Assembly (NCBI GenBank): GCA_026016245.1
Contig: CP061211.1
Span: 360,001 to 392,000 of the forward strand
DNA length: 32,000 nucleotides
Source of the DNA: Candidatus Pacearchaeota archaeon
Lineage (GTDB): Archaea > Nanobdellota > Nanobdellia > Pacearchaeales > UBA284
Reading direction: 5' to 3'
Below are positions 456 to 31,970 of this stretch, piece after piece (position 1 is the stretch's first letter; each line of letters starts with the position of its first letter). The notes beneath the pieces were generated by a model. That model had not been told where the DNA came from and searched no databases. It was given only the letters and a program-made list of their open reading frames with translations. A program made the translations under genes and the position numbers.

Positions 456-1859
456 ATGAGGATTTGTGTAATAGCACCAAGGACAGGCAAGGAATTATCC
501 AGGCAAGTTCCTATAATAAGAGAACCTTTAGGTGCTTGTTGTATATCAGCTTATTTAAAAAAATATGGTTATGAATCTAAAGTGATACACCAAGTAGAGA
601 TGGTTGATGATGACGTTTTATATAAAGTTAAAGAATTCAAAGCAGATATTGTCGGTATTTCAACATGGTCATATAATTTCAATGCTGGCAAAAGAATAGC
701 AAAATTAATTAAATCTAGATATAAAGATATTCCAATAATTTTCGGTGGTGATCATGTTACAGCCTGTCCTGAAGTTGTAAAAGGAGATTGCATAGATTAT
801 GTGGTGATTGGTGAAGGTGAAACCACAATGTTAGAATTAGTTAAAGCCTTAGAGGGTAAGAGAGATATAAATTCTGTAGATGGCATAGCTTATTATAAAA
901 ATAAAGAAATTAAATTAACAAAATCAAGAAAAAGAATTAGAAATTTAGATGAATTGCCTTTTCCTGATAGAGAAGACTTGCCAATGGAAAAATATAGGGC
1001 TACTAAGCATGATTGTAGTCTTGTTTATCCTCCTGGACAGCAAATAGGAACTCAACATACTTCAAGAGGTTGCAGATATAAGTGTACTTTCTGTTCTACA
1101 CCAGTAACTTGGCCAGGAATGTGGGTTGCTAGATCTGCTAAAAATGTAGTGGATGAAACAGAAGATTTGTTGGACAACCACAATGTCAAAAGTATTTTCT
1201 TTTGTGATGAGGATTTTATGTGTAATATTGAAAGGATATATCAAATATGTGATGAGATTAAAAAAAGAAACCTTAAATTTAACTGGCTTTGTTTTTCAAA
1301 AGTTACTGATGTAAACAAAGATATCTTAAAAGCTATGAAAGATGCTGGTTGTACAAGAGTATTTTATGGAATAGAAAGTTGTGATAATATAACATTAAAA
1401 AAATTACATAAAGGCACAAATTTAAAGAAGATAATAAAGACATTTGAAATAACCGAAGAAATTGGACTTGATGTTTGGGGCACTTATATGGCGGGATACC
1501 CATGGGAAGATGAAAAGACTCTTCTAAAGTCACTAGGAAAACTAAAGGAAATGCCCATAGATTACTTATATCTTACTTTTTTAACTCCTTTTCCAGGTAC
1601 AGAAATTTATAAATATTGCAAAGAGAATAATTTGTTGCTTAATGAAAATTTTGATGATTATGATTGTAGTAAACCTATAATAAAAACACAAATTCCACCT
1701 AACAGATTACAAAAAATTCTATCAGAGTTTGAATATGAATTTTATACTAGTAATAGTTATATGTTGAGAGCTCACGAAAAGATAGAAAAAAATCCGCGAC
1801 TTAAAGAAATATATAATAAATTTTTTAAAAATATGGTAAAAGAGTTAAATAAAATCTAA
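456..1859 (+). CDS. B12-binding domain radical SAM protein (class B rSAM)
   Basis: 467-aa ORF. The N-terminal Rossmann-like region (ADIVGISTW...IPIIFGGDHVT) is typical of the cobalamin-binding domain. It is followed by the CxxxCxxC radical SAM cluster motif SRGCRYKCTFCS. Confidence 0.85.
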   Translation: MRICVIAPRTGKELSRQVPIIREPLGACCISAYLKKYGYESKVIHQVEMVDDDVLYKVKEFKADIVGISTWSYNFNAGKRIAKLIKSRYKDIPIIFGGDHVTACPEVVKGDCIDYVVIGEGETTMLELVKALEGKRDINSVDGIAYYKNKEIKLTKSRKRIRNLDELPFPDREDLPMEKYRATKHDCSLVYPPGQQIGTQHTSRGCRYKCTFCSTPVTWPGMWVARSAKNVVDETEDLLDNHNVKSIFFCDEDFMCNIERIYQICDEIKKRNLKFNWLCFSKVTDVNKDILKAMKDAGCTRVFYGIESCDNITLKKLHKGTNLKKIIKTFEITEEIGLDVWGTYMAGYPWEDEKTLLKSLGKLKEMPIDYLYLTFLTPFPGTEIYKYCKENNLLLNENFDDYDCSKPIIKTQIPPNRLQKILSEFEYEFYTSNSYMLRAHEKIEKNPRLKEIYNKFFKNMVKELNKI

Positions 1860-3890: not shown

Positions 3891-5336
3891 TTATTCTTCA
3901 GGTTCACCCATTACTAGAAGAGAATTTGAAGAAACTACCTTTCTCATGTCTTTTTTATTGATATAACTAACAACTGCTTTTGGAATTGTTATTGTGCCTA
4001 CTGGAACTACCTTGCTATAGATAATGTAAGAAACAACTCTTTCTTCTCCAGGCATCAAATCTCCAAATTTCCAGAAAAGAGTGTTTTTCTCAATTTTATC
4101 AGGTTTAGAAGCTCCGAATCTCTCATAAATCTTAAGCATGTGAGGAAGCCTATCAGTACATTTAACATTGGTGATTTGTTGGCCAATATTCTTGACCAAC
4201 AATACTAGTTTAATAGCAAATTCCCCGCCTTTTGTTTGAATCTTGAAAGCTTTTTTCTTTACAATAAGTCTTGGTCTTTTAACAAGATAAATTCCTACTG
4301 CTACGATAATGATTAGAATAAGAATTATTATTGGAATTGTATAATCAGTATGAATCTCAACACTAAAAGATTCTCCTGGTTCAAGTTCTCTTTGCCATTT
4401 CATGCTTACGATTGCACCTGAAGGCTCCTCAGATGTTGGGGGAATACTTGAAGAAGTAAATCCATGCTCAAATTTGTTCTTGATTATTTCTATTGTAACA
4501 AACTTTGGACTATTACCCTCATTTTTCTTTGTTATAGTCTTAGTAAAACCAAAGAAAGTGAATTTGCTACTCTCATCTGTTTTTATGCTCGTGATTTCTT
4601 CTAGTGTAATTATTTTCTTCACAACATGCTCATATTCATCATTAATTAAAAATTTCAATTCAGCTTCATAATCACCTGCTTTTGATGTCTTTAGTTTTCC
4701 TGTATCAAGCTCTAGTTCTATTTTTTGCGAAGATTTTGGTTCAAGGGAAAAAGTTTGTTCTGTTGTAGAAAATTCTGATTCAAAAGTAAATTGGATTTCC
4801 CCAAGATTAATATTTTCTTTATTTTTAACATCAAAAACCAAGACAGAATCATCTCTAGCTATGCTGGTAGGAACATCTGCACTTATAATTTTTTCAAGAG
4901 ATAATATTTTTATGGTAAAACTATCTTCAATCACTCCTGTCCTATCTGCCTTGAGATAATATTGTACTTTACATGTTCCTTCTCCACATCTCTCTTTTAA
5001 AATATCATAAGGGAGCAGGATTACAGTAAATGTAGTTTCTAGACCAGCTGGGACACTTTGGGTAGAAGCTGGTCCAAGTGAGGCTTCTAATAGAGTATAT
5101 ATCTTAAAAAAATCATCATAATTATTAGGATTTTTAATCGTGACATTATATTCTGCTGGAATATTTACTTCTTCCATTGTCACAACATCATAAATTGCTA
5201 CTTTCTCAATAATCAAAGTATTATTTTGAGCCTGAATAAAAGGCAGAGAGAATAGTAAAATTGTAAAAACCAAATAGAATAAAGTCATTTTTTTCATATC
5301 TTGTGTAAGTTTGATTTCTTTAAATATTTTTTGCAT
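3891..5336 (-). CDS. Membrane protein: signal peptide, beta-rich ectodomain, one TM helix, C-terminal DUF11/CARDB-like domain
   Basis: 481-aa ORF starting 2 nt after the rad50 stop. Signal-like N-terminus (MTLFYLVFTILLFSLPFIQAQ) and a TM helix IPIIILILIIIVAVGIYLV followed by KRPR. The C-terminal segment VKNIGQQITNVKCTDRLP...WKFGDLMPGEERVVSYIIY resembles the archaeal conserved repeat (DUF11-type) beta-sandwich. Function unknown. Confidence 0.6.
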   Translation of the reverse strand: MQKIFKEIKLTQDMKKMTLFYLVFTILLFSLPFIQAQNNTLIIEKVAIYDVVTMEEVNIPAEYNVTIKNPNNYDDFFKIYTLLEASLGPASTQSVPAGLETTFTVILLPYDILKERCGEGTCKVQYYLKADRTGVIEDSFTIKILSLEKIISADVPTSIARDDSVLVFDVKNKENINLGEIQFTFESEFSTTEQTFSLEPKSSQKIELELDTGKLKTSKAGDYEAELKFLINDEYEHVVKKIITLEEITSIKTDESSKFTFFGFTKTITKKNEGNSPKFVTIEIIKNKFEHGFTSSSIPPTSEEPSGAIVSMKWQRELEPGESFSVEIHTDYTIPIIILILIIIVAVGIYLVKRPRLIVKKKAFKIQTKGGEFAIKLVLLVKNIGQQITNVKCTDRLPHMLKIYERFGASKPDKIEKNTLFWKFGDLMPGEERVVSYIIYSKVVPVGTITIPKAVVSYINKKDMRKVVSSNSLLVMGEPEE

Positions 5337-10355: not shown

Positions 10356-11279
10356 ATGAATGGGAATTGGTGGAGATGGTTGGCGTTGTTTGCATTAGTA
10401 GGATGCCTCGGATGTGCGACAAAGTATGCAAAAAAACCAGAAACAATAGAAGAAGCAGATGAAATAAAAAAAGAAAAAAGAATTAATATAGATGATATTA
10501 GAATAATCAGCCCCAACTTGGCTGAAAAACTTGATCCAGAAATAAAAAAGAAAATTCAAGGTTTAGAAGAATCCGAACTTCTTAATTCTTCATCATTAGA
10601 ATTCAAAACAGATTCTGTTTCAGTTCAACTCATGAAAGATGCACATTCAGGTATCGCAACTATAGAAATTCTAAAGTTAAAGAGAAAGCCTTATAAGGAT
10701 CTTGATGAAGATAACATAAGTTTTTTGACAATACTTGGACATTATCACTACTTCCATGATGAACATGATAAAGCTTTAGAAAATTTTTATCAGGTTTTGA
10801 ATGAATGCAAAGAGAGAAAGGTTAGTATTGGGGGGATAGTTTTTAGAGAAATCGCTAAATGCTATAGAGAAAAGAAAGACTATCAGAAAGCGAATACATA
10901 CTGCTTAAGAGCATGTGAAGAGGATGAAAAATTAATTAATAGCCAAGACAAAGCAGAACAAAAAGAAGGAAAAAAAGAGCTGTGTACTGATTATCTTATA
11001 TCCTACAAAATTTTATCTTTGCAAGGAAAAGGAAAAGAAGCAGAAGAAATAAAAGAAAAATGTATTAATTTATCAAAAGAAATTGAAGAAATTAAAGGAA
11101 AAAAAATTCTCCTTTCAATTTATGCATTTGATTGGCAATTCTACAAAGATAAAAATCCAGAACTTTCAGAAGAACATAAAGTCAAAGCAGATTCTTTGTA
11201 TGAAGAAATAAGAAATGACTATGATAGAAGATTAAGAGGAATGTTTGGTTTAGACAAAGATAGCGGGAACGGAAATTAA
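10356..11279 (+). CDS. Putative lipoprotein with TPR-like helical repeats
   Basis: N-terminus MNGNWWRWLALFALVGCLGC carries a lipobox-like LVGC. The mid-region has TPR-like pairs (KALENFYQVLNE..., IAKCYREKKDYQKANTYCLRA). Confidence 0.55.
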   Translation: MNGNWWRWLALFALVGCLGCATKYAKKPETIEEADEIKKEKRINIDDIRIISPNLAEKLDPEIKKKIQGLEESELLNSSSLEFKTDSVSVQLMKDAHSGIATIEILKLKRKPYKDLDEDNISFLTILGHYHYFHDEHDKALENFYQVLNECKERKVSIGGIVFREIAKCYREKKDYQKANTYCLRACEEDEKLINSQDKAEQKEGKKELCTDYLISYKILSLQGKGKEAEEIKEKCINLSKEIEEIKGKKILLSIYAFDWQFYKDKNPELSEEHKVKADSLYEEIRNDYDRRLRGMFGLDKDSGNGN

Positions 11280-12299
11280 ATCTTTTGCTGTACTTGTATC
11301 TTTAGGTTGTATTACCTCAGAATTCTCAGACTTGATTGAAGTTCCTATATCTAAAAAAGCCATCAACGCATCACCTAAATTTTCTAGATTAAAACCTGTT
11401 CTTAGTGGACAGATATCATAATAACTTTTCTCTGAACCATCAACTAAGAACTTACCTTCAAAAATACAATAATCCCTATTTTTCTTTTTTATTAAAGTCC
11501 TTTCTTTTGTTTCAAATGCAACAGCTCTGGAAACTATGCTAAAATAAAGAGGATTTCCCTCCTTATCTTCAGGATAAAAAGCAAGATAAGCCTTAAAATC
11601 TTTATTTTTATCTGCTTCAGGAGTTATATTTCTTTGATAACTTAATTTTAAATCTGAGCTTTCTAAGAACAAATAATCATCGCTAGTTTCATGTTGTAAA
11701 CCAATAAAAGATCCTCCTTGATTAAGTAAAATCCAATTCTGATCTTTTTCAAAATTTATTTCAGCACCAGAAATAACTATTTTTTTAGAATCAATTCTGT
11801 CTATTATTCTTCCTATCCATCCTGGCTTATCTTTTTTAGTAACAGGATAGATAAGTTTTCCTCCCCCAATATATCCTGCATCATTAATCTGCAGCTCTTT
11901 TGGAGTTAAAAATTTTATTGTGCGAAATTCATAAAATAATGGGCGAAAAGCATTATTTAGAGTATTTGCTGCACGAGGACCATAATCAATAGATGCATCT
12001 TCCACAGCTTGTATACAAATAGGAAAGTTAGTATCAAAATCACCAGTATAATAGAAATAATTATCTTTGTATGCAAAGCCACATCCTTTAAGAGATGCTT
12101 TGAATCTAAAATTGACATCTATTTGTGCTGGCCAAGTTCCTGCCTTCTCAAAAGTCAACCCAAGATTTCCATTCGGTAAACCATTCGGTAAAACTTTCAT
12201 TTTAGCGAAAGCTGCACTTGCTAGACTTAGATTGAACAATAAAACTAATACTAAGAATATCAAAAGCAATTTTGATTTCATTTTATATCTCAACAACAA
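11250..12299 (-). CDS. Secreted hypothetical protein
   Basis: The track start at 12299 is a TTG. The ATG at 12281 (MKSKLLLIFLVLVLLFNLSLASAAFA, a Sec-type signal peptide) lies 1 nt after the stop of the upstream pilin-like gene, so 11250..12281 is my preferred model. No family recognised. Confidence 0.6.
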   Translation of the reverse strand: MLLRYKMKSKLLLIFLVLVLLFNLSLASAAFAKMKVLPNGLPNGNLGLTFEKAGTWPAQIDVNFRFKASLKGCGFAYKDNYFYYTGDFDTNFPICIQAVEDASIDYGPRAANTLNNAFRPLFYEFRTIKFLTPKELQINDAGYIGGGKLIYPVTKKDKPGWIGRIIDRIDSKKIVISGAEINFEKDQNWILLNQGGSFIGLQHETSDDYLFLESSDLKLSYQRNITPEADKNKDFKAYLAFYPEDKEGNPLYFSIVSRAVAFETKERTLIKKKNRDYCIFEGKFLVDGSEKSYYDICPLRTGFNLENLGDALMAFLDIGTSIKSENSEVIQPKDTSTAKDLISVPAIFV

Positions 12300-13023
12300 A
12301 CCTCCAAGTTATATTTTTATCATCAAACTTTATATCTTTATCTGTGATTAAAAACCATATATGCTCTGGTTCAAAAATATCTTTTGTTATTGGAACTGCT
12401 TTAATCGTAACATTATTCACTGTAGCAATTTCATCAATACAAGCCACACAAAGAGACCCTGGCTTTTTTTCATAATCTTCAACAACCTGGTCTGAAACAT
12501 CAAGTAATTTAACAACGGGAGCTTCAACACTTGTTGTAAAACTCTCTAATCTTGCTGTTGCCATACCTTTTTTAATTGTTATAGGACAATCAAACAAAAC
12601 ATCAACATTTTCTGTTATTTGTGAATTTATAGAACATTCCTCAGACATTATATCATAATCTTCTAAAGTAAAACAATCATTAATATTATCATCGAGATAT
12701 TTATCCAATTCATTAGCAACTATATCAACAGAAGGAACTAAACTCTGCTCAGCTTTCCAATAATAAGCTGTTTGTTCATCAAGGAAATTTATACTTTCAA
12801 CACCCTCAAGATTATAATAGCCAGCTTGTTTTCCTAAAAATAAAATTCCTTCCTTGGTCTTTAGCTCAAAACACTCGCCAAGATAGGATTTTACTGTTGC
12901 AACATCATTCTCACTTAATTCAACACCTGGAAAACCTCTCTGGAAGAAGATGACAAGAACAATTAAGGCCACGATAACTATTGCGATAATAATGAATAAA
13001 GTAACCTGCCCTCTTTTTTGCAT
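12283..13023 (-). CDS. Protein with class III (prepilin-type) signal peptide; paralog of 30322..31146
   Basis: N-terminus MQKRGQVTLFIIIAIVIVALIVLVIFF has a short basic leader, then RG|Q, then a hydrophobic helix, as in archaeal type IV pilin-like precursors. It shares KRGQVTLFIIIAIVI and the LGxQAGYY block with the 274-aa protein at 30322..31146. Confidence 0.65.
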   Translation of the reverse strand: MQKRGQVTLFIIIAIVIVALIVLVIFFQRGFPGVELSENDVATVKSYLGECFELKTKEGILFLGKQAGYYNLEGVESINFLDEQTAYYWKAEQSLVPSVDIVANELDKYLDDNINDCFTLEDYDIMSEECSINSQITENVDVLFDCPITIKKGMATARLESFTTSVEAPVVKLLDVSDQVVEDYEKKPGSLCVACIDEIATVNNVTIKAVPITKDIFEPEHIWFLITDKDIKFDDKNITWRFVVEI

Positions 13024-13184: not shown

Positions 13185-13508
13185 ATGAAAAAAGAAATTG
13201 TTTTTATCTTCTTGATTTTAGGTCTGATAATGGTTAGTGGAATAAGCTGCCAAGATAAAGCGAAAATTCTTGAATCAGCATGTAGGCAAGCATGTTATCA
13301 AGCTCTTAATGAGGGAAAAGACTTGAGTGAAGGACCTTGTCTTCTTGATCCAATGCCTGAAGACAATAACTGGGTTTGTGACATTGCTCATGACCCAAGA
13401 CAGCCAGTAGATAATGAAATGCAAAATCAGTGTGATGCCTGGAATAATGGAACAGCAAAACACTTTATTGAACTAACTCCAGAATGTGAATTTATAGCAG
13501 CTTATTAA
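13185..13508 (+). CDS. Small secreted cysteine-rich protein (possible lipoprotein)
   Basis: 107 aa. Signal peptide MKKEIVFIFLILGLIMVSGISC, and a mature part with 7 further Cys (ACRQACYQ, GPCLLD, WVCDIAHDPRQP, NQCDAW, PECEF). Starts 13 nt after tRNA-Phe. Confidence 0.55.
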   Translation: MKKEIVFIFLILGLIMVSGISCQDKAKILESACRQACYQALNEGKDLSEGPCLLDPMPEDNNWVCDIAHDPRQPVDNEMQNQCDAWNNGTAKHFIELTPECEFIAAY

Positions 13509-13563: not shown

Positions 13564-14121
13564 ATGAAAAACAAAAAAGCAGCTTTTGAGATGTCTATAA
13601 CCACTATAATTATCATAGTAATTGGTGTAGTTATGCTAATTTTTGGTATGGTGTTCGTAAGAACAATTATGTGTGGGGCTTTGAATATAGCAGCAACTAC
13701 TCTAGAAGGCGCTCAAGGAGAAATTAACAAACTTTTTGGTGAACAAGCAGGGGAAGAGGTAGTATGTATGGGCACTAAAGGTACTATGGATATAATACCA
13801 AACAGATACAATGTAGTAGGATGTGGTTTTAGCCCTGACATAAATAAGGACTTTGAATATACATTTACTATTGAAAGTGCATTTATAGTAGGCACAAATC
13901 AAGATATAAAAAATGAAGTAAAAACTTGGATTCCAGAGACATTGACAGGAACAGTAAAGGCTGGACCTGGAGAAACATCTTATGCTACTTTTGGTATACA
14001 CCCCCCAAAAGATGCTCAGCATGCAATCATAGTAATTAAGCCCACTATAAACGGTGTGGATAAAACAAAAATGAGGTTTGAAGTCAGAAGAGTTGGCTGG
14101 CTACAACAGACAGTTTGTTAA
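13564..14121 (+). CDS. Candidate pilin-like protein (class III-type N-terminus)
   Basis: 185 aa. MKNKKAAFEMSITTIIIIVIGVVMLIFGMVFV has a basic leader, a small residue, then a long hydrophobic helix with an early Glu. Preceded by the SD-like AAGAGG at 13555-13560. Confidence 0.5.
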   Translation: MKNKKAAFEMSITTIIIIVIGVVMLIFGMVFVRTIMCGALNIAATTLEGAQGEINKLFGEQAGEEVVCMGTKGTMDIIPNRYNVVGCGFSPDINKDFEYTFTIESAFIVGTNQDIKNEVKTWIPETLTGTVKAGPGETSYATFGIHPPKDAQHAIIVIKPTINGVDKTKMRFEVRRVGWLQQTVC

Positions 14122-15562: not shown

Positions 15563-16333
15563 ATGAGGTATGCTAGCACTTATTCTTACTTCATCTCCTT
15601 CTATACCAACAAAATATGTCCCTTTTTTCTGGCCATTCTCTTCAACCCCCATGAAAAAATAAGGCAATTCCCCTTGAGGAAAGAAAGTTATATAATAAGT
15701 TCTTTGTCCCTTAAAGAAGTTGAGAAAGATTTTGCAGTGGATAGTTCAGGATTTTCTACTTCAAGATTTGCAAGATGGTTTGATTATAAGTGGGGTAAGG
15801 AAAGAAAATATAAAATTTGGTTAAAGGCCCATCTAATTTCTGGAACTAAAACAAATATTGTTACAGGAGTTAAAATTACAGAAGGAAACAGAAATGATAG
15901 CCCTCAACTAAAAGGTCTTGTTAAGAAAACAGCAGAGAACTTTAATATTTCAGAAGTAAGCGGGGATAAAGCCTATTGTGGAAAAGAGAATTTTAAAGTT
16001 ATAGCAAAATGTGGTGGAATTCCTTTTATCCCTTTTAAGAAAAATGTTACAGGAAAAAGAGGAGGTTCTGATATTTGGAAAAAAATGTATCATTTCTTTA
16101 TGTATAATCAAATGGAATTTTTAGAACATTATCACAAGCGTTCAAACTCAGAAACAGTTTTTCATATGATTAAAACCAAATTTAGTGGAGAGATTAAAAG
16201 CAAAAAACAAACAGCACAAGTGAATGAATTGTTGATTAAGGTCTTGTGTCATAATATTTGCTGCGTAATCCAAGAAGTTTGTGAATTGGGTATTAAGGCA
16301 AAATTTAAATTAGAGGAACCTATTAGAATATGA
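15563..16333 (+). mobile_element. IS5-like DDE transposase remnant (5'-truncated, catalytic domain only)
   Basis: DDE triad context: FAVDSSGF (D), VSGDKAY (D), HKRSNSETVFHMIKTKF (E). The first ~50 codons of the track ORF are low-complexity and unconvincing. There is no room for the usual N-terminal DNA-binding region because cysS ends at 15558. Confidence 0.7.
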
Positions 16334-24330: not shown

Positions 24331-24401
24331 GGGGCCATAGTTCAATGGTAAAACAGCCGCCTCCAGAGCGGCAGTCGGGGGTTCGAGTCCCTCTGGCCCC
24401 A
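24331..24401 (+). tRNA. tRNA-Trp (anticodon CCA), intron-less
   Basis: Acceptor GGGGCCA/TGGCCCC, anticodon arm GCCGC-CTCCAGA-GCGGC, T arm GGGGG-TTCGAGT-CCCTC (one G-U pair), discriminator A. 71 nt, D stem with one mismatch, no encoded CCA. Confidence 0.85.
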
Positions 24402-24410: not shown

Positions 24411-24498
24411 GATATATTAAACGTAAAAGAAAAAACAACGAAGGAGATAAATAGAAAATTAACTTATTTATTAACAACAATTTTCATTAACAATAGAA

Positions 24499-27400
24499 TC
24501 ACAAAGGAGGAACTTCAAAAGGATCTATGATTGTTGTGCATACATCTGCTTCTGGACTTCCACCAGGATAATTCTCCCATTCATCTACACACTTGATATA
24601 GTATAAATGATCAAGCTGCCAATAAGCTGCATGGATTGTTTCATTATTGCCGGTCATTGCTGTTCCATCACTGAAATTATAATTGCATGCAGTTGAAGTG
24701 CTTGTTCCATAAACACAAGTACTATTTTCATCTGTTTCAATAATTAGATAATCCCCAATAGTTGTGTCATGATACATTCTGATAACTATTGGATCATCTT
24801 CATCCAGCAATGTATAGAATTTTGTAAAGTTTATTGCTTCCATATACCATTGATCCCTGCATCTAGCCCATAGAGTATGAAGCATGCCTATTTTTGTTGC
24901 ATTAAGAGTTTCATTGTGCCTTCCTTGGTGTATTGTGTTCATTACTTCATCTATGTAATACATCTCATCCCAGCTTGGTGGGGTCTTAGGACCATTTCCT
25001 TGATAAGTCTTGTATTTACATTCAGTTGATCGTGGCTCGCTTGTTACTTCAATTTCAGGCTGTCTGTCATAAGTTCTTTCATCCATTTCTGGCCTTATCA
25101 CAGTGATATTATATCCAGGCATTGTCATGAAAGAATAACTTAAAGTGTCTTCCTCTAACATAATATTTCCTGCATTATCTTCACATCTTATCATGAAGTT
25201 AAAGATTTTTGTTACATTGTATAAACCATTCTCCTCAAGCTGTTGTTGCATCTCAGGAGGCATCTCACTCCATTCAAGGCTCTCATAACCCTTGGATAAA
25301 TCAAGGTCTAGTTCACAGTGAGTACATTTTACATTAGTTAGATGTATACAATCAGAAGGATAACATTGGCCAAATATTACACTTGAATTTTCATTTGGTT
25401 TTTCTCTAAAGTATTTCATTTCTTCATAACTAGTAGTGTAGTTCATTGTTTTATCACTGTATTTACAATTTCCTAACTCATCTAGCCAGAATGTTGCTGT
25501 TAGATTCTTCCAATCATCATTTACAACAGCTTTATTTTCAGGATCAATATGTGCTATGACAGGAGGCAATTGATCTGGCTTTTCCTCTAGTCTAAATTGC
25601 ACATAATTTTGATCATAACTTGCTCCATGGGGAATATCACAAGCATTATTACATTTTATGAAAATTCTATGTTCTTGATCTCGAGTTATTTCTCCTGGTA
25701 GCATTATAGTTGTATATTGCCATCCTGGTACTCCGGCAGACTGCATAGGATAATAATTTTCTTCAAAATCATCCATCTCAGAAAATTCAGCTTCTCTTGT
25801 GTCAAGAATCCATCTACACTGAGCTGGTTTGTCTGTTGTCAGATTAATTAATATCATTTTTGTATTAAATGGAATCTCCCCAATATCTGTTCTTATATTT
25901 CCTTGACTGATTTCTGCTGGTATTGAGTTTACAAGTTCACCATTAATATACCACTCAATAAAACCTTTATTCATTCCCACTAATCCAAGTTCCTCACACT
26001 CGCCAGGAATACAATTATATTGATCACCTTTTTCAGTTGGAACAGCAATACAAGTTCCTAAAACAGCACATCTTTCTTTAGTGCATATTCTATAAGGATC
26101 TTCATTACAACTTATACAAGCATCTGTTCCAGGCAATGGTTTTTCTGCTGAACAAGAACCCATAATATCATATCCTTCAGCGCCACCAGAAGTTAATCTA
26201 AATGCCTTGATAGTTGCAGATGTACATGACAAAATATTAGCTACCATCTCAGGAATAGTCATAGCAAACACTGCTTCTGATTTTTGAAGATCATCTTGCG
26301 CAGCTTCTAACTCCTTATCTATTTCTATATATTCCTCTTCACCAAGCTCCTCTTTTTTTCCTGCAAGATCTTTTCTTGCTTCAACAATAGCTTCAATCTG
26401 CTCATTAATTTTTTTGGTTTTTAAATCTGGATCCTCTATGCCTTTGATTGTCTCTAAAGTACTTGCTATTGAACCATATCCTGCGTCAGTTAGATGTTTT
26501 TTCGCACCATCTATAAATTTATTAGCATTTTGCTTGTCCCATAACCAATGTCTTCCTATGCATACAGAAAGTCTTCCTAAAGTTCCTGGTTTTTTTACTC
26601 TTTCTCTCTCAGCTTCTTTTTGTTTACAACAATATTCTCCTTCTTTTAGACCTTTGATAGGAATTATGCTGTTAGGAAGACATTTTTCTGTTTCTTCTTC
26701 CCTTGACTTTACTATGATGCCATCCTTATCTCCGCATGTTACTGTTATACAGCATTGAATATTATCTGGGCCTGGGCAAAGATTTGGCTTACAATCTTCT
26801 GTTTCTACTACATCAGTATCAACACAGCTATAATCTGCGCCCCTTTGAGAACATATAGAATTTATATCAATAGCGCAGCATAGTAATTTTTCTATTTTTA
26901 AAATACATTCTGTTCCTGGGGTTATTCCTAAATTTTTAAGAGCATTATTATGCCATAGAAGTTTGTCATCACATGTTAATTGGCATCTTCCTAATCCTCT
27001 CTCTTCACAAAGATGTTTTGATGGTTTAGGTGGGAGTCCTGATGGGGCTGTTGATGGTGTTGGTGTTTTTTCTAGTTCGCTTCTTATACCTTCTTTTTCA
27101 TTGCGATGTTTCTGCCAGCTAAAGTATCCTGTGAAAGATTTAATGGCATGAGCTGTTCCTGGTAAACCAGTATCAGTGGCTAATGCACCTTCTCCTTCTT
27201 CTTTGAGTTCTCTTTTATAATTTTCAAGATCTGTTTCTAGGGCTTCTATCCTTGGAATTAAATCTCTCCTACCTATATCCTCGGCTACTTGCTTATAAGC
27301 TCTTATTTCAATCAATTCTCCTTCTATATTTTGAAGTTCAGCAGCTACTTTAGATTCTTCAGCTCCAGCTCTTCCCACAGGTATTGGTGGTTTAGTTATA

Positions 27401-27930
27401 GCACTACCAATAATACTTCCTTCAGTGCATCCTATACCATGACCCTTAGTAATTAAACTGAATAATCCTCTTGGTAAGCCGCCGCCCATAGTTCCTGCAG
27501 AACATACTTTGCATTCTACTTGAATATAACATAATTTTTTTTGGTCTTCTTTTGAAAAATATTTCCTCAAAAGCCCCCAGCTATGCCAGGCTGCTCCAAA
27601 AGAAACTACAAATTTTTTGTTATGGATTTTCCCTATTTTGTTATTATCACAATCTAATCCCCACCACCAAATCTCTACAATCTTATTTGAAAAAAAGTTT
27701 GTACTTACAGGGATAGTAGCTCCTTCTCTAGATTCAAATTCACATCTCAAATTAAGGGGTTCATTTAATTTTACAGGATCATATTTTATTCTAAAATCTA
27801 AGCTGGGGCCTGTGCTTTTTGTTGGTGCTATTTCTGTTTGGCCTAAAACAAAAGTAAATAATGATAAAATTATTAGAACCACTGCTATGGTTATTGCAAA
27901 GATTTTTATTGTGTTATTTTTATTTTTCAT
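24499..27930 (-). CDS. Giant secreted cysteine-rich multidomain protein (1143 aa), unknown family
   Basis: N-terminal basic stretch plus hydrophobic helix (IKIFAITIAVVLIILSLFTFVLG). 47 Cys by hand count, including three CC doublets. Two K/E-rich coiled-coil segments (aa ~190-250 and ~500-555) and a P/T/S linker KTPTPSTAPSGLPPKPSK. Four degenerate C-terminal repeats. ATGA overlap with the upstream gene. Confidence 0.75.
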   Translation of the reverse strand: MKNKNNTIKIFAITIAVVLIILSLFTFVLGQTEIAPTKSTGPSLDFRIKYDPVKLNEPLNLRCEFESREGATIPVSTNFFSNKIVEIWWWGLDCDNNKIGKIHNKKFVVSFGAAWHSWGLLRKYFSKEDQKKLCYIQVECKVCSAGTMGGGLPRGLFSLITKGHGIGCTEGSIIGSAITKPPIPVGRAGAEESKVAAELQNIEGELIEIRAYKQVAEDIGRRDLIPRIEALETDLENYKRELKEEGEGALATDTGLPGTAHAIKSFTGYFSWQKHRNEKEGIRSELEKTPTPSTAPSGLPPKPSKHLCEERGLGRCQLTCDDKLLWHNNALKNLGITPGTECILKIEKLLCCAIDINSICSQRGADYSCVDTDVVETEDCKPNLCPGPDNIQCCITVTCGDKDGIIVKSREEETEKCLPNSIIPIKGLKEGEYCCKQKEAERERVKKPGTLGRLSVCIGRHWLWDKQNANKFIDGAKKHLTDAGYGSIASTLETIKGIEDPDLKTKKINEQIEAIVEARKDLAGKKEELGEEEYIEIDKELEAAQDDLQKSEAVFAMTIPEMVANILSCTSATIKAFRLTSGGAEGYDIMGSCSAEKPLPGTDACISCNEDPYRICTKERCAVLGTCIAVPTEKGDQYNCIPGECEELGLVGMNKGFIEWYINGELVNSIPAEISQGNIRTDIGEIPFNTKMILINLTTDKPAQCRWILDTREAEFSEMDDFEENYYPMQSAGVPGWQYTTIMLPGEITRDQEHRIFIKCNNACDIPHGASYDQNYVQFRLEEKPDQLPPVIAHIDPENKAVVNDDWKNLTATFWLDELGNCKYSDKTMNYTTSYEEMKYFREKPNENSSVIFGQCYPSDCIHLTNVKCTHCELDLDLSKGYESLEWSEMPPEMQQQLEENGLYNVTKIFNFMIRCEDNAGNIMLEEDTLSYSFMTMPGYNITVIRPEMDERTYDRQPEIEVTSEPRSTECKYKTYQGNGPKTPPSWDEMYYIDEVMNTIHQGRHNETLNATKIGMLHTLWARCRDQWYMEAINFTKFYTLLDEDDPIVIRMYHDTTIGDYLIIETDENSTCVYGTSTSTACNYNFSDGTAMTGNNETIHAAYWQLDHLYYIKCVDEWENYPGGSPEADVCTTIIDPFEVPPL

Positions 27931-28169
27931 TTTATTTTTTCTCCCAGCGCTCTTTCAACTTTTTCTACTACCGCATCTATTTCCTTTTGAAGTTCTTCCT
28001 GCTTTTTTTCTAATTCTACCCTTTTGAGGCTGTCTTTGTAAGCTGATATTTGGTATTGTTGTTCATTTATTTTGTTTTGATATGGTGGGACAGCTATGTT
28101 ATAAACTATAACTCCACCAACAATAGCTCCTACTATAGCTCCTGTAACATATTTTACTAAATCTGACAT
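27927..28169 (-). CDS. Glycine-zipper membrane-anchored coiled-coil protein (80 aa)
   Basis: MSDLVKYVTGAIVGAIVGGVIVYNIAVPPYQNKINEQQ... has an N-terminal GxxxGxxxG helix followed by a heptad-like K/E/Q-rich tail. Paralog of the next gene upstream. Confidence 0.65.
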   Translation of the reverse strand: MSDLVKYVTGAIVGAIVGGVIVYNIAVPPYQNKINEQQYQISAYKDSLKRVELEKKQEELQKEIDAVVEKVERALGEKIK

Positions 28170-28176
28170 TTTTATT

Positions 28177-28485
28177 TTATTCCTTTTCTAATTCTTTTTT
28201 TATTTTGTCTTTTTCTTTATAATGCTTTTCCCAACTAAATCCTTGTGACTCTGCTTCTTTTAGCAGTTCTCCAAATTCTTTTTGATTTTCTTCTGCTTCC
28301 TGCGTTATAAATTCAAGACACAGTTTACTTAGAGCTTTATTTTTTTCTTTAAGTTGAGATTTTTCTGCTTTTAAAAAATTTATTTTACTTTGATACATTG
28401 GTTCAGCTATACCATAATAAACTATAACTCCACCAACAACAGCACCTACCACGCCTCCTATGACATATTTTATTATATCTTTCAT
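28177..28485 (-). CDS. Glycine-zipper membrane-anchored coiled-coil protein (102 aa)
   Basis: Trimmed from track ORF 28177..28563 to the ATG at 28485 (MKDIIKYVIGGVVGAVVGGVIVYYGIAEPMYQSKINF...). That ATG lies 1 nt after the stop of the 607-aa gene and aligns with the start of the 80-aa paralog. Confidence 0.6.
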   Translation of the reverse strand: MKDIIKYVIGGVVGAVVGGVIVYYGIAEPMYQSKINFLKAEKSQLKEKNKALSKLCLEFITQEAEENQKEFGELLKEAESQGFSWEKHYKEKDKIKKELEKE

Positions 28486-28486
28486 C

Positions 28487-30310
28487 TTAACTTCCACCCC
28501 CTTGTTCTCCGCCTTGCTGTTCTCCGCCTTCACTACCGAAGACAGCTCCAGTTGCTTTATCAATAACAGTCTCTGTCACTTTTCCGCTTAAAGCATTCCA
28601 GGCTGCTCCCATAAGTTTGCCATTTATTATCCATAGTGGAGCATAAATTGCGTAAGCTTTTCCTCTGTCAGCTAAACATTTTAAAAAGTTAGTATTTTGA
28701 GGCAGCCAGCATGCTGGTTGCGTTTTGCCCCATGTTTTACAATAAACTAGTGTTGTGAATGTACATTCTGGAATAATAAGACTTATTCTATCTCCTAATG
28801 CAAGTCCTGGCCAGAACCAAGCAAATGTTCCTAGCTTAGTTCCGAAACCTGCTTCTTGGAATTGACAATCACCTTTACTATAACATTCTGCTCTTGTACA
28901 TAAATTCCATATAGCATCTCCTCCTCCGCCACATTCAGTACATTTACTTTCAGCAAGTCCTGGAGGATAGATAGGATCACAAGAGCCTACTGGTGTTCCA
29001 AGACCTACTCTTCCCATATCTTCATGATAAATACAATCACCATAATCACCAGACTCACATTTTTCTTTATTACAATAATCACCAAACCAGCTTGCCCACA
29101 TTCTTCCTGTTGGGAATGGGAAAGATGCTGGTCCTAGAAAATCACCAACTTCATTACCAAAACCAAACAAGGCTTTTGAAGCTCCACACTGAGAACAGTT
29201 TTGCCATTTATTTTCTTTGACTGTTCCATGTATTAGGGCAGGAGCCTCTCCTCCCATCTCACATAATTTTTGCCTGTCTGCTCCTAAACCTTCAATACCT
29301 ATATCACCAAAAGAGCAATGAAGGATTTGGTTTTGCAGGCCTGTTGATCTTTCTTGCATTCTCTCGTCTCCGTATTGAGTGTAGAAATTATAACATATTG
29401 AAGTTCCACTAAGTAATGTTGTTCCTTCTATAGTGGGAGCTTCATTCACTTTTGGGGCATAATCTGAAATTTCCTGGCTGCCTAATGAGCCTTCAATAAT
29501 ACATGTTGTGTCCTTACAATAAACATTTCCCAAGATATCTTTTGTACATAGGGCATGAGGATAATTACAATTGCCAGATTCATCTGTACCAGGATCACTC
29601 CATATTTCTTCTTGATTTCCTTGGCTGTCATACCAATAAATATCTGTTTCAGTTCCTGGAAGCTTGCCACATTCAGAATAGAAATTAGTTTCCACAGCAC
29701 AGTCTGCTACATCTCTACAATAATATCCTCCTTGTAAAGGCACGAAGTTTCCTTCTTGGCAATCTCTTCTTGGGCCATAACCACACTCTCCTCCTCCTAA
29801 AACACAACAGCCAAGATCTGTTGGCGAGCCTACTTTTTTACATTCTATCTGGCTTGTTATATCATCTCTAAATTCCATCATCTCTAGATCATAACCTAGA
29901 GCAAGAGTCAAATTTTCACATTGTCTGAATTGTAAAACTTCTGCCTTAACTCCTTGAGCAATTATACAACAGCCTGGTTTACATTGAGGAATTGATTCTA
30001 AAGGAGATGGATCAGGAACTCCATTCATAGCTCTACATTCTGCAGCTTGCTTATTTCTCAAACAAGGTTCTGCCTTGTTTTTTGGTATACAAGTTTGTGG
30101 CTTACATTCAGGAATATTACTACAATCATAAGGAGGGCCTGTATAAAACCTTCCTGGACATTCAGTTCTTGTTGTCTGAACACATTGCTGTCCTGTTCCA
30201 GTATCAAGACAGCATCCTTCCTGCTCTTGTGCTTGAACTTCTTGTGATGAGACAGTAAATAGTATTATAATCATCAAAATTGTTATGATTATTGCAAATA
30301 TTTTTTTCAT
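28487..30310 (-). CDS. Secreted cysteine-rich protein (607 aa), unknown family
   Basis: Sec-type signal peptide MKKIFAIIITILMIIILFTVSSQEVQAQ. 43 Cys by hand count, including three GCC-initiated modules. Gly/Gln/Glu tail GSEGGEQQGGEQGGGS. Confidence 0.75.
   Translation of the reverse strand: MKKIFAIIITILMIIILFTVSSQEVQAQEQEGCCLDTGTGQQCVQTTRTECPGRFYTGPPYDCSNIPECKPQTCIPKNKAEPCLRNKQAAECRAMNGVPDPSPLESIPQCKPGCCIIAQGVKAEVLQFRQCENLTLALGYDLEMMEFRDDITSQIECKKVGSPTDLGCCVLGGGECGYGPRRDCQEGNFVPLQGGYYCRDVADCAVETNFYSECGKLPGTETDIYWYDSQGNQEEIWSDPGTDESGNCNYPHALCTKDILGNVYCKDTTCIIEGSLGSQEISDYAPKVNEAPTIEGTTLLSGTSICYNFYTQYGDERMQERSTGLQNQILHCSFGDIGIEGLGADRQKLCEMGGEAPALIHGTVKENKWQNCSQCGASKALFGFGNEVGDFLGPASFPFPTGRMWASWFGDYCNKEKCESGDYGDCIYHEDMGRVGLGTPVGSCDPIYPPGLAESKCTECGGGGDAIWNLCTRAECYSKGDCQFQEAGFGTKLGTFAWFWPGLALGDRISLIIPECTFTTLVYCKTWGKTQPACWLPQNTNFLKCLADRGKAYAIYAPLWIINGKLMGAAWNALSGKVTETVIDKATGAVFGSEGGEQQGGEQGGGS
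28501..28530. repeat. Two tandem copies of a 15-nt unit (encodes GGEQ-QGGEQ)
   Basis: cttgttctccgcctt / gctgttctccgcctt, 13 of 15 identical, a GC-rich pocket at the 3' end of the 607-aa gene. Confidence 0.8.
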
Positions 30311-30321
30311 TTTTTTCTTTT

Positions 30322-31146
30322 TTATGTTCTGTCTACTGCAAAATTAAATTTATATGGGAATTCTCCTATTCTGTGAGGAACAGATTCTAGTATGAAGACT
30401 ATCTGATCTTTGTTGATACTTCGAGCATCTCTGCTAATGTATTGAAGTGTGTAAGGATCATTCCATGTCTCTTCATCCCATTTTAAACCTTCATAATTAC
30501 AATCTACTTGAGTTTCACAATCAACAATCCTATTAGCTGTATACCATAAATTTCCTAAAGGAACAGTGAGAGTGGCTGGAATCTGGTTGATTGTCTGCTC
30601 AGCTTCTGCCCTCGCTGTCTGCTTGCTTATTTTTATAGGCCAATCAACATTAATCATTATGGAATCGGGATTTATCGTTGCTGTCATCTTTCTTTCTCCA
30701 GGTTCAACATTCATATTTCTTTTGAAGGAAGCAAAATTATTAAGGCAAGAATCAATTTCAGCATAACCTTCTCTTTCAAGAAAAAGAGAGAATTGCTCCT
30801 CTATCTGGGTTTCACTTGGAAGTTTATTTATTCTTTGTTTTGCAGCATCTTTGTACATAACAACAATATAACTGTTTCCTGCAAAATCTAATCTTTCTAA
30901 TCCAGTAGTATCATAATAGCCTGCTTGTAAACCTATCCTCTCAAAAGCAGGATAACTTGTAGCAAGAACACAGTCATAAACAGCATCTCTAAGTGATTCT
31001 GCTTGGCTTGCTAAAAAGGATTCTGTTTGTTGTTGGGACATGAATAAAGTTGAGATAGTGGGCCAGAAAATAAGGCCAAGAACTACAACTGCTATGATGA
31101 CAATGGCGATAATAATGAATAAGGTAACCTGTCCTCTTTTATCCAT
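30322..31146 (-). CDS. Protein with class III (prepilin-type) signal peptide; first gene of the surface operon
   Basis: MDKRGQVTLFIIIAIVIIAVVVLGLIFW has a basic leader, RG|Q and a hydrophobic helix. Paralog of 12283..13023 (shared IGLQAGYY/LGKQAGYY block and conserved Cys positions). Confidence 0.7.
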   Translation of the reverse strand: MDKRGQVTLFIIIAIVIIAVVVLGLIFWPTISTLFMSQQQTESFLASQAESLRDAVYDCVLATSYPAFERIGLQAGYYDTTGLERLDFAGNSYIVVMYKDAAKQRINKLPSETQIEEQFSLFLEREGYAEIDSCLNNFASFKRNMNVEPGERKMTATINPDSIMINVDWPIKISKQTARAEAEQTINQIPATLTVPLGNLWYTANRIVDCETQVDCNYEGLKWDEETWNDPYTLQYISRDARSINKDQIVFILESVPHRIGEFPYKFNFAVDRT

Positions 31147-31164
31147 GTTTTAAATAACAAATCT

Positions 31165-31180
31165 GATATTTATAAAGTTT
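31165..31180 (-). promoter_or_regulatory. BRE/TATA-like element for the five-gene surface operon
   Basis: The minus strand reads aaactttataaatatc, ending 18 nt upstream of the ATG at 31146. Confidence 0.4.
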
Positions 31181-31214
31181 ATTCTATTATTCGTTTTTAT
31201 CCCTCTTTTTGAGC

Positions 31215-31970
31215 TTATTCTTCTTCTTCTACTCTCGGTGCAAGAACAAAACTTAACTCTACTCCCTCCTTATTTACAAAATCAAATCTTGCAGGATAAT
31301 CGTTTGAGAAATTAACAATGACTTTATCTGAGAGTTTTGATGCTTTTGCAAATTTGGCAAGATAGTCTAGACTGTATTTTGCTTTTGAATTTTCTTTTGC
31401 TTGAATTTTTATCTCATCACTGTTAAATTCTGTCTTGGCTGAATTTAAGGTTCCTTTTGCCTCTATCAAAAAAAGATCTTCTGAAGCATTTAGAGAGCAA
31501 GAATCAGCGACTATTGAGGCATCATTTATTGATTCTGCGAAACTTTTTGCATCTAATTCTATCTTGGCTGAAAAATTAAGACTTGGAATCTGTTTTTCTT
31601 CTGCTTCTACATTTATAAGAGCAAGACTGAAAGCTCTTTTTGATTTTTCTCTGATTCTTAGCTTGATAGTATTATCTTTTCTCTCTATTATTAGACTTGA
31701 ACTAAATGCAACACGTCTTAATACTTGTTTAAAATCTTCCAGGTTTATACCAAGTTCTTCATCCTTATCTATTTCAAATTGTGAAAAAGCTTTAGCTGGA
31801 ATCTTCAGAGAGATTAGAGCTACATTAGCAGGATCTATTGCTGTTATTTCAAAACCATTTTTGTTTATTTTTGCTTTAACCTCTAAAACTAATTCACTAA
31901 GTAAAGAGATACTATCAGCAAGAAGCTTTGGATTGTCTAATTTGAGTAACATAAGTGAGTGAGAATTCAA
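31215..31970 (-). CDS. pcn: DNA polymerase sliding clamp PCNA
   Basis: About 250 aa. LLADSISLLSELVLEVKAKINKNGFEITAIDPANVALISLKIP..F..FEIDKDEELGINLEDFKQVLRRV parallels archaeal PCNA. Acidic C-terminus. The track start is a TTG. The ATG 18 nt downstream (about 31952, MLLKLDNPK...) fits the TATA spacing better. Confidence 0.9.
   Translation of the reverse strand: MNSHSLMLLKLDNPKLLADSISLLSELVLEVKAKINKNGFEITAIDPANVALISLKIPAKAFSQFEIDKDEELGINLEDFKQVLRRVAFSSSLIIERKDNTIKLRIREKSKRAFSLALINVEAEEKQIPSLNFSAKIELDAKSFAESINDASIVADSCSLNASEDLFLIEAKGTLNSAKTEFNSDEIKIQAKENSKAKYSLDYLAKFAKASKLSDKVIVNFSNDYPARFDFVNKEGVELSFVLAPRVEEEE

Follow-up and report, generated by a model that had tools for sequence, protein, structure and literature searches.

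A conserved gene module of pilin-like and cysteine-rich proteins in Pacearchaeota as a candidate exported cell-envelope complex

Pacearchaeota and Woesearchaeota are abundant, uncultured archaea of minimal metabolism which are thought to be attached to hosts, and to our knowledge nothing has been established on their cell envelope or their mode of attachment. In the present study we have analysed a stretch of 32,000 nucleotides (the window) from a contig of a Candidatus Pacearchaeota metagenome-assembled genome (710,724 bp, locus tags beginning IB618_; the same contig is found in Logan run DRR463595). Its source is a reduced DPANN archaeon, which bears out the reduced archaeon supposed by an earlier note on this DNA. 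That note had treated five minus-strand open reading frames (ORF1 to ORF5) as one functional unit. Comparison of related loci indicates instead that the conserved core is made up of ORF1, which encodes a pilin-like protein, ORF2, which encodes a protein with 43 cysteines, and the C-terminal half of ORF5 (residues 561-1143, hereafter O5C). We propose, at about even confidence, that the cluster encodes an exported cell-envelope complex which acts as outer coat and/or host-attachment surface and has a dedicated pilin-like partner. What appears to be new is that such an archaeal surface complex would draw on families without any characterised member, in an arrangement not described before.

The core was recognised from gene order. 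In 13 of 13 independent genomes labelled Pacearchaeota or Woesearchaeota, whose loci were annotated by BLAST, PCNA is followed by ORF1, ORF2, zero to five small genes and O5C, and across from PCNA lie a fused PriS-PriL primase, a cysteine-rich L784-like gene and an L788-like gene. Identities for ORF1, ORF2 and O5C range from 28 to 78%, and the retention of their order over this range in every related genome examined indicates that the genes are real and under purifying selection. The divergence of the module tracks that of PCNA and primase, with identities of 86 and 82% for the latter two against 77, 72 and 78% for ORF1, ORF2 and O5C in the relative L007, and of 40 and 48% against 32, 29 and 30% in L004; thus these proteins do not appear to be hypervariable surface antigens. 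The distant lineage L020 carries, near PCNA and primase, an ORF1-like gene, a gene for a 472-residue protein with 30 cysteines and an O5C-like gene. Conserved co-occurrence in related genomes, which had been set beforehand as a refutation test, is therefore strong for the trio of ORF1, ORF2 and O5C; outside the closest relatives it does not extend to all five genes.

The link between ORF2 and O5C is closer than adjacency. At least 32 O5C-family representatives among the matches listed, of about 1000-1380 residues and 56-78 cysteines, have an N-terminal half that aligns with the ORF2 profile over its full length (E to 3e-142), and in fused proteins of about 1250 residues the entire ORF2 forms that half. 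Since the two are one polypeptide in many relatives, they are two halves of one unit. Furthermore, the cysteine knot of ORF2 (profile positions 443-490) matches that of O5C, so that the motif C-x2-C…C-T-x3-C-x4-G-x-C is present in duplicate.

The fused form was found in at least 552 metagenomic loci by a scan based on a tight alignment of the fused family, a first alignment having been too diverse, and 80 of these loci were kept for the analysis of layout. In a typical locus the primase is divergent from PCNA, which is followed by ORF1, a fused ORF2-O5C gene, a second ORF1, a second ORF2, a second O5C and, further on, Hjc. Tandem duplication of ORF2/O5C is seen in many genomes (L022-L101 generally), usually as one fused and one split copy, with up to three fused copies in L033. 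Each tandem duplicate of the module has its own ORF1 copy; in L018 (17422-21622) a second ORF2/O5C pair has no ORF1-like gene detected upstream. A fused relative of 1137 residues and 60 cysteines (P0203, MBW6442434.1, on a 147-kb contig) was deposited as 'Patescibacteria group bacterium'; either a DPANN contig was mis-binned or the gene has been transferred to bacteria of the candidate phyla radiation.

Beyond PCNA (31215-31970 of the window), and just past the right end of the window, three genes divergent from PCNA were identified (L001, 1691-7879). They encode the fused PriS-PriL-type primase of 470 residues, a 784-residue protein with 47 cysteines, six 'CC' repeat units and a C-terminal transmembrane helix, and a 788-residue protein with the same CC…C-KK-P-T plus transmembrane tail. 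Their synteny is as well kept as that of the module, both in the genomes and in most of the metagenomic loci whose flanks are long enough, and from this context these neighbours may be part of the same envelope system.

The conserved surroundings also bear on the idea that the genes are those of an integrated virus or mobile element and encode its envelope glycoproteins. Cysteine-rich, secreted, glycoprotein-like genes beside PCNA, primase and Hjc would suit such an origin, as would the Cas4-like gene in L004 and a DDE transposase elsewhere in the window. Nevertheless, in every genome examined the module lies at one and the same place, with single-copy PCNA/primase on one side and tRNA synthetase or ribosomal genes on the other, the divergence follows that of housekeeping genes, the window (G+C 28-39%) has no composition break, and neither a significant PHROG match nor a fold match in BFVD was obtained. 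We find this origin scarcely credible, and the conserved chromosomal context essentially rules it out.

ORF2 (28487-30310, minus strand; IB618_02280) encodes a protein of 607 residues which begins with a Sec-type signal ending in VQA/QEQEG (here and below a stroke within such a sequence marks the predicted cleavage site). After the signal comes an ectodomain (about 30-480) rich in cysteine and beta-strands, in which GCC-x-C occurs three times and a C-x2-C…C-x4-C 'knot' occupies about 457-482; it is followed by a helical and weakly hydrophobic part (489-559) and a disordered G/Q/E tail. We retrieved 62 homologues with 28-74% identity; the organism-labelled ones are Pacearchaeota and one Aenigmatarchaeota, most being unlabelled. 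The emphasis of the earlier note on a high cysteine content was well placed, given that 31 cysteines are invariant across 42 ORF2 homologues. The counts of 43 in ORF2 and 47 in ORF5 were reproduced and amount to 7.1% and 4.1% of residues, against 0.3-1.5% in most cytoplasmic proteins of the window. As ORF2 and ORF5 both carry N-terminal export signals, also as previously claimed, their cysteines would most simply form disulfides outside the membrane. An AlphaFold2 (AF2) model of ORF2, with a mean predicted local distance difference test score (pLDDT) of 79, shows the signal helix, the cysteine-laden beta-rich ectodomain, the helical C-terminal region and the disordered tail. Foldseek gave no match for it at E<=1e-3 in PDB or BFVD, and no fusogen or viral glycoprotein fold. 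The ORF2 half thus represents a confidently modelled fold without a counterpart in these two databases. Only 2 N-X-S/T sequons are present.

ORF5 (24499-27930, minus strand; IB618_02265) encodes 1143 residues, of which the conserved part is O5C (24499-26250, including the stop codon). An exhaustive search with ORF5 returned 735 cluster representatives at E<=1e-3 with the homology confined to the C-terminal 580 residues or so; a word-indexed search with the full-length protein retrieved ORF5 alone, words from coiled-coil and low-complexity regions having probably masked the relatives. O5C comprises a pre-knot helix, a cysteine knot (C605-C645) and four to five tandem immunoglobulin-like (Ig-like) beta-sandwich domains, and has about 20 invariant cysteines. 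In the AF2 model of ORF5 (mean pLDDT 70) the beta-sandwich array occupies about 650-1143, where pLDDT is mostly 75-94, with lower values in the knot region. Comparison of the model with PDB by Foldseek gave 215 matches at E<=1e-3. The top 50 are all multi-domain beta-sandwich proteins, mostly Ig, FN3 or cadherin ectodomains, and matches include the HPI S-layer protein of D. radiodurans (8cka, E 4.6e-9) and Bap and RTX adhesins. O5C holds 12 N-X-S/T sequons (residues 696-1096) of the 13 in the whole of ORF5, for which 7 are expected. By its modelled tandem Ig-like domains and its many sequons O5C would have the make-up of a surface-layer glycoprotein.

The four C-terminal repeats described before for ORF5 hold as a recurring motif, C-x-[YW] ... 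aromatic-x-h-x-C-x-[DN], at 705-762, 822-918, 971-1026 and 1072-1116, and do not hold as sequence repeats, since a BLAST self-comparison of ORF5 revealed no internal repeats and a single pair of the motif repeats was BLAST-significant. Similarly, its N-terminal 'signal/anchor' helix, read by eye, looks like a cleavable Sec signal (VLG/Q; LNA/Q and VLA/D in relatives) and not like a permanent anchor. The last residues of the protein (1131-1143; 24502-24540), C-T-x-I-I-x-P-[FY]-E-V-P-x-L and here IIDPFEVPPL, are among the best-conserved stretches of O5C in the Pacearchaeota clade, a conservation that points to a signal for docking or processing; a motif of sortase or archaeosortase type was not recognised there.

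The other half of ORF5, residues 1-560 (26251-27930), is lineage-specific, the homology of relatives beginning at about 370-590. After the signal peptide it contains a low-confidence domain with six cysteines, a helical hairpin (191-249), a helix with an ORF3-like motif (272-288), a P/T/S linker (KTPTPSTAPSGLPPKPSK, about 289-306), a 16-cysteine region with three 'CC' units (306-440) and long helices (450-581). The AF2 model, helical at 191-249, 272-288 and 450-581, supports the helical segments and the linker noted previously. This half is present only in the closest relatives, and in L008 its N-terminal module is found as separate genes of 282 and 183/205 residues; residues 1-560 are thus, on this distribution, a recent lineage-specific addition.

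In agreement with the earlier note, which recognised no characterised family for any of the five proteins, searches against Pfam, NCBIfam, PHROGs and PADLOC gave nothing above curated cut-offs, likewise for paralogues and distant relatives, and searches of PDB sequences with single proteins and family profiles gave nothing significant. No S-layer family (SlaA/SlaB, S_layer_N/C, DUF1608) was matched by ORF2, ORF5 or their family profiles in Pfam, NCBIfam or PDB sequences. The only traces concern ORF4, with one sub-threshold match to a function-less family in PHROGs (E 3e-4) and two weak coiled-coil matches in PADLOC (E 1e-3 and 5e-3), where the other four proteins have none. Literature searches found no description of the ORF1/ORF2/O5C module.

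ORF1 (30322-31146, minus strand) encodes 274 residues beginning MDKRGQVTLFIIIAIVII, with one hydrophobic segment. Its layout is a short basic leader, MDKRG, then Q6 with a 20-residue hydrophobic helix and a globular domain of about 240 residues. The N-terminus, MDKRG/QVTLFIIIAIVIIAVVVLGLIF, has the features of a class III signal peptide, namely a short, positively charged leader that ends in G/A and, after it, some 20 hydrophobic residues. Leader and hydrophobic stretch together constitute a FlaFind-type motif, and Q at +1 is typical of euryarchaeal pilins. Leader length in orthologues ranges between 4 and 13 residues, yet [K/R]-[G/A]-Q and the hydrophobic run are retained, with G/A at -1 and Q at +1 in 13 of 14 aligned sequences. 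Among metagenomic ORF1-like frames, 112 of 128 fit the pattern [G/A]-x-hydrophobic run, which itself fixes -1 as G or A; K/R occupies -2 in 103 of these 112, and Q occupies +1 in 111. The class III, prepilin-type N-terminus attributed to ORF1 is therefore upheld and, judged by these alignments, it is a nearly invariant signature of the family. Neither pilin, archaellin nor DUF361-type domains were matched by ORF1 in Pfam or NCBIfam at E<=1, and its family profile has no PDB sequence relative. A role as thiol oxidoreductase or cysteine protease was considered and rejected: there are two invariant cysteines, no CxxC and no invariant histidine, and the partners are not always rich in cysteine.

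In gene order ORF1 is tightly coupled to ORF2. A homologue lies immediately 5' of the ORF2-type gene in 13 of 13 genomes, and in the 80 retained metagenomic loci an ORF1-type gene ends within 1 kb upstream on the same strand for 109 of the 117 ORF2-type genes with enough upstream sequence (median gap 2 nucleotides). When the profiles of ORF1 and O5C were concatenated for a joint search, relatives of O5C were recovered together with some ORF1-like proteins of about 620 residues, and no ORF1 orthologues. ORF1-family paralogues also precede unrelated secreted proteins, in the window (12283-13023 ahead of 11250-12299), in L007 (249 residues ahead of 616) and in L021 (625 ahead of 2440). The pair in the window (11250-13023, minus strand) forms a paralogous mini-module, in which a gene for a 246-residue ORF1-like protein (MQKRGQVTLFIIIAIVIV), 25% identical to ORF1, shares 17 nucleotides with the start of the gene for a 349-residue signal-peptide protein of no known family; an ORF1-like gene followed by a secreted-protein gene recurs in L006, L007 and L021 (with the 2440-residue partner). 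A further candidate class-III-signal protein of 185 residues (MKNKKAAFEMSITTIIIIVIGVVMLIFG; 13564-14121, plus strand), without a family match, adjoins a 107-residue signal-peptide protein with seven cysteines (13185-13508) and tRNA-Phe.

Such an N-terminus raises the possibility of a pilus or pseudopilus tip complex, in which ORF1 would be a minor type IV pilin whose assembly machinery is encoded elsewhere and ORF2/ORF5 a large non-pilin adhesin, as with minor pilins and PilY1. The near-invariant, euryarchaeal-pilin-like [K/R]-G/Q plus hydrophobic N-terminus and the presence of one ORF1 per large secreted partner are consistent with it; archaeal pilus loci do combine minor pilins of 250-550 residues with large PilY-like proteins (PMC4858521), and some Woesearchaeota express archaellins, so that prepilin peptidases exist in the wider clade (PMC11606122). 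However, no pilus ATPase, platform protein, prepilin peptidase or major-pilin gene lies in the 32-kb window, as the earlier note had already remarked for the first three, and none was found among Pfam-annotated genes within about 10 kb (pilus ATPase, platform or A24 peptidase in L001, L002, L004, L006, L007, L008 and L019-L021; all four types in the neighbourhoods of the eight relatives so annotated). According to one survey, DPANN genomes lack type IV pilus components (10.1101/2020.05.14.094862). Moreover, many family members are integral membrane proteins with transmembrane helices of their own, a poor fit to the cargo of a fibre tip. We regard a pilus tip as unlikely.

These membrane helices are best followed in the distant relatives. 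Many distant ORF2 homologues end in a strong transmembrane helix and a KK tail, where the clade of the window has weakly hydrophobic helices and the G/Q/E tail. Distant O5C homologues and fused proteins have G/A-rich hydrophobic helices of GxxxG type, the last of which lies about 45 residues before the knot, and the equivalent helix of ORF5 in the window (559-581) is weakly hydrophobic. Each of the five proteins of the window has exactly one strongly hydrophobic segment, at the N-terminus. Taken together, this lineage appears, from the comparison of homologues, to have lost the built-in membrane helices and to have gained ORF3, ORF4 and the coiled-coil extension of ORF5.

ORF3 (28177-28485, minus strand; 102 residues from its ATG) has an N-terminal glycine-zipper transmembrane helix, GGVVGAVVGGVIV, and a coiled-coil tail. 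An in-frame TTG start (28177-28563) would give 128 residues and overlap the last 77 nucleotides of ORF2; the alignment of the homologue in L007 begins at residue 3-4 of the 102-residue form, and the ATG is the better-fitting putative start. ORF4 (27927-28169, minus strand; 80 residues), also a glycine-zipper transmembrane helix with a coiled coil, overlaps the start of ORF5 by 4 nucleotides. The two are paralogues, as claimed previously (43% identity over 79 residues, E 4e-14), and a C-terminal motif of ORF3, FSWEKHYKEKDKIKKELEK, reappears in ORF5 at 270-288, a sharing seen in L007 too. The only homologues detected for ORF3 and ORF4 belong to L007, the closest relative, and, weakly, to L008. 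This does not sustain the view that the two are general assembly or anchoring parts; by this distribution they are recent lineage-specific accessories. Where ORF5 is longer than 900 residues, small genes for a transmembrane helix plus coiled coil accompany it in 4 of 5 loci; where it is short, in 0 of 8. A derivation of ORF3 and ORF4 from the G/A-rich linker helices of the fused relatives was rejected, there being no detectable homology.

Glycine zippers favour homo-oligomeric membrane channels, and a host-contact pore or membrane bridge may be envisaged, in which the glycine-zipper helices of ORF3 and ORF4, or the G/A-rich linkers of fused relatives, oligomerise while the ectodomains hold the host envelope, with formation of a metabolite conduit. 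Hydrophobic segments rich in GxxxG indeed separate the two ectodomains in relatives, fused and split alike, and are present in ORF3/ORF4, the C-terminal segment of ORF2, TFAWFWPGLALG, is aromatic and rich in glycine, and module loci are abundant in lineages of minimal metabolism, the Pacearchaeota being reportedly strongly host-attached (10.1101/2020.05.14.094862). The argument is nonetheless purely analogical, with no match to a pore-former or fusogen fold in PDB or BFVD; the hydrophobic helices are degenerate in the proteins of the window, and ORF3 and ORF4 are recent and narrowly distributed. A pore is in our judgement quite improbable. In a broader form, the module would be a host-interaction machine of the Pacearchaeota-Woesearchaeota radiation, disulfide-locked and composed of two ectodomains, glycine-zipper helices and a private pilin-like subunit, which grips the host envelope and forms a conduit or fusion site for feeding. 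This we think distinctly unlikely; if true, it would mean a new class of archaeal cell-cell contact apparatus and not a passive coat.

Returning to the exported cell-envelope complex, we propose that its core is a two-part, cysteine-cross-linked surface protein consisting of ORF2 and the C-terminal 580 residues of ORF5. Both would leave the cell through their Sec signals and fold outside the membrane, and the exported unit would present four to five Ig-like domains in an array open to glycosylation. ORF1, probably made from the same transcript and with an apparent 1:1 gene coupling, would remain in the membrane by its class-III-type helix or form a short pilin-like stub, its globular domain docking the ORF2/ORF5 unit to the cell. 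In this lineage the ancestral transmembrane helices, namely the helix with KK tail at the C-terminus of ORF2 and the hairpin, rich in G/A, that precedes the knot of O5C, would have decayed, and ORF3, ORF4 and the matching coiled-coil N-terminal extension of ORF5 are probably replacement tethers. The function of the complex would be that of the cell's outer coat and/or of an attachment surface for the host. The lineage-specific families of Pacearchaeota, reportedly largely membrane-bound or extracellular and without function prediction (PMC8204110), provide a setting for such a proposal. From a Pacearchaeota metaproteome, 'hypothetical proteins', IF-2 alpha and pyruvate kinase are all that is reported (PMC11537232).

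Several points weigh against this proposal. From sequence we infer alike the location of the proteins, the formation of a complex and its function. Archaeal S-layer proteins are usually poor in cysteine. Transcriptomes of Woesearchaeota show expression of separately annotated 'S-layer protein genes' (PMC11606122), and from these two points it follows that the complex may not be the main lattice. The contact of ORF1 with ORF2/ORF5 is suggested by gene adjacency, and ORF1-family genes also stand before unrelated secreted proteins. By a crude hydropathy threshold the fused relatives have 1-4 hydrophobic linker segments, and the placing of both halves outside the cell is a predicted and not a proven topology. 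The association of ORF3/ORF4 with the long ORF5 comes from few closely related genomes and has an exception in L014. Finally, the cysteines of the C-x2-C…C-x4-C 'knot' might be ligands of a metal and not disulfide partners.

The arrangement of the genes in the window is compatible with joint expression. The five frames (24499-31146, minus strand) were found where the earlier note had placed them, with spacers of 11, 1, 7 and -4 nucleotides, and the single TATA-like element it had described ahead of them was read as TTTATAAA at 31169-31176 (minus strand), 23-30 nucleotides 5' of the ORF1 ATG, a distance which implies a leaderless transcript or one with a very short leader. A sigma-70 promoter scan gave 22 sites against 25.7 expected, the sigma-70 model being uninformative for an archaeon. 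About 65 nucleotides 3' of the ORF5 stop codon an oligo-T run, TTTTTTCTTTT (about 24425-24437, minus strand), is a plausible archaeal transcription stop at the end of the five-gene unit, and just past it tRNA-Trp (24331-24401) lies convergent on the opposite strand. Tight spacers, one TATA-like box and one downstream oligo-T run thus make the five genes look like a co-transcribed unit.

Other genes of the window include Rad50/Mre11, several aminoacyl-tRNA synthetases, ribosomal proteins, Hjc and PCNA. A DDE transposase (15563-16333; PF01609, E 6e-23) is situated between CysRS and a trypsin-like protease, the start of which it overlaps by 4 nucleotides, a mobile element amid housekeeping genes of a very small genome. 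Directly 3' of Rad50/Mre11, a gene at 3891-5336 (minus strand) encodes a 481-residue signal-peptide protein with a late transmembrane helix and no more than a faint Ig-like match, a further envelope protein that belongs to the uncharacterised ones.

In the present analysis three orphan families are brought together in one defined module with a fixed gene order, a fixed address beside PCNA and primase, and a private pilin-like partner. The large number of environmental loci makes this module a concrete conserved target, which may also be used as a marker locus.

Among known systems, the variant-specific surface proteins of Giardia offer an analogy only: they share with ORF2 the signal peptide, the very high cysteine content and the CxxC and CC units, and with many ORF2 homologues the C-terminal transmembrane helix with a short basic tail. 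There is no homology, however, and ORF2, far from forming a large variable family, is a single- to few-copy, conserved gene which is always paired with O5C and ORF1. The bacterial operons of minor pilins and PilY1 resemble the module in having a pilin-like gene directly 5' of a large secreted non-pilin, to which it is apparently translationally coupled. They differ in belonging to another domain of life, in the lack of homology, in having four or five pilin-like genes instead of one, and in that the large protein of the module is itself membrane-embedded in most relatives. With archaeal pilins and minor pilins, FlaF/FlaG and the Sulfolobus bindosome, ORF1 shares the basic leader ending in G/A, Q at +1, the helix of about 20 residues and the globular domain; it differs in that no pilin, archaellin or DUF361 match is found, the globular domain has no family match, assembly genes are absent nearby and cleavage is only predicted. 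Minor pilins occur with PilY-like partners (PMC4858521), and FlaF binds the S-layer (PMC4425475), a precedent for class III proteins acting as envelope tethers or in non-filament assemblies.

The two-component archaeal S-layers, such as those of the Sulfolobales with a SlaA canopy and a SlaB membrane stalk of coiled coil and beta-sandwiches, differ from the module in sequence, with no homology, and in that the module has an extreme cysteine content, an unmatched ORF2 fold, a pilin-like third partner and another polarity, with N-terminal signals and an internal transmembrane hairpin in relatives. The two share adjacent, co-oriented genes for exported proteins, one protein with tandem Ig-like domains and many sequons, and helical or coiled-coil and membrane-tether elements. 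For DPANN archaea an S-layer protein has yet to be determined; the candidates proposed so far measure about 1000 residues, have about five Ig-like folds and lack homology to known S-layers (10.1101/2023.10.27.564410); to the proposed DPANN S-layer proteins MJ1_0160 of Nanobdella and NEQ300 of N. equitans the module can be likened by description only.

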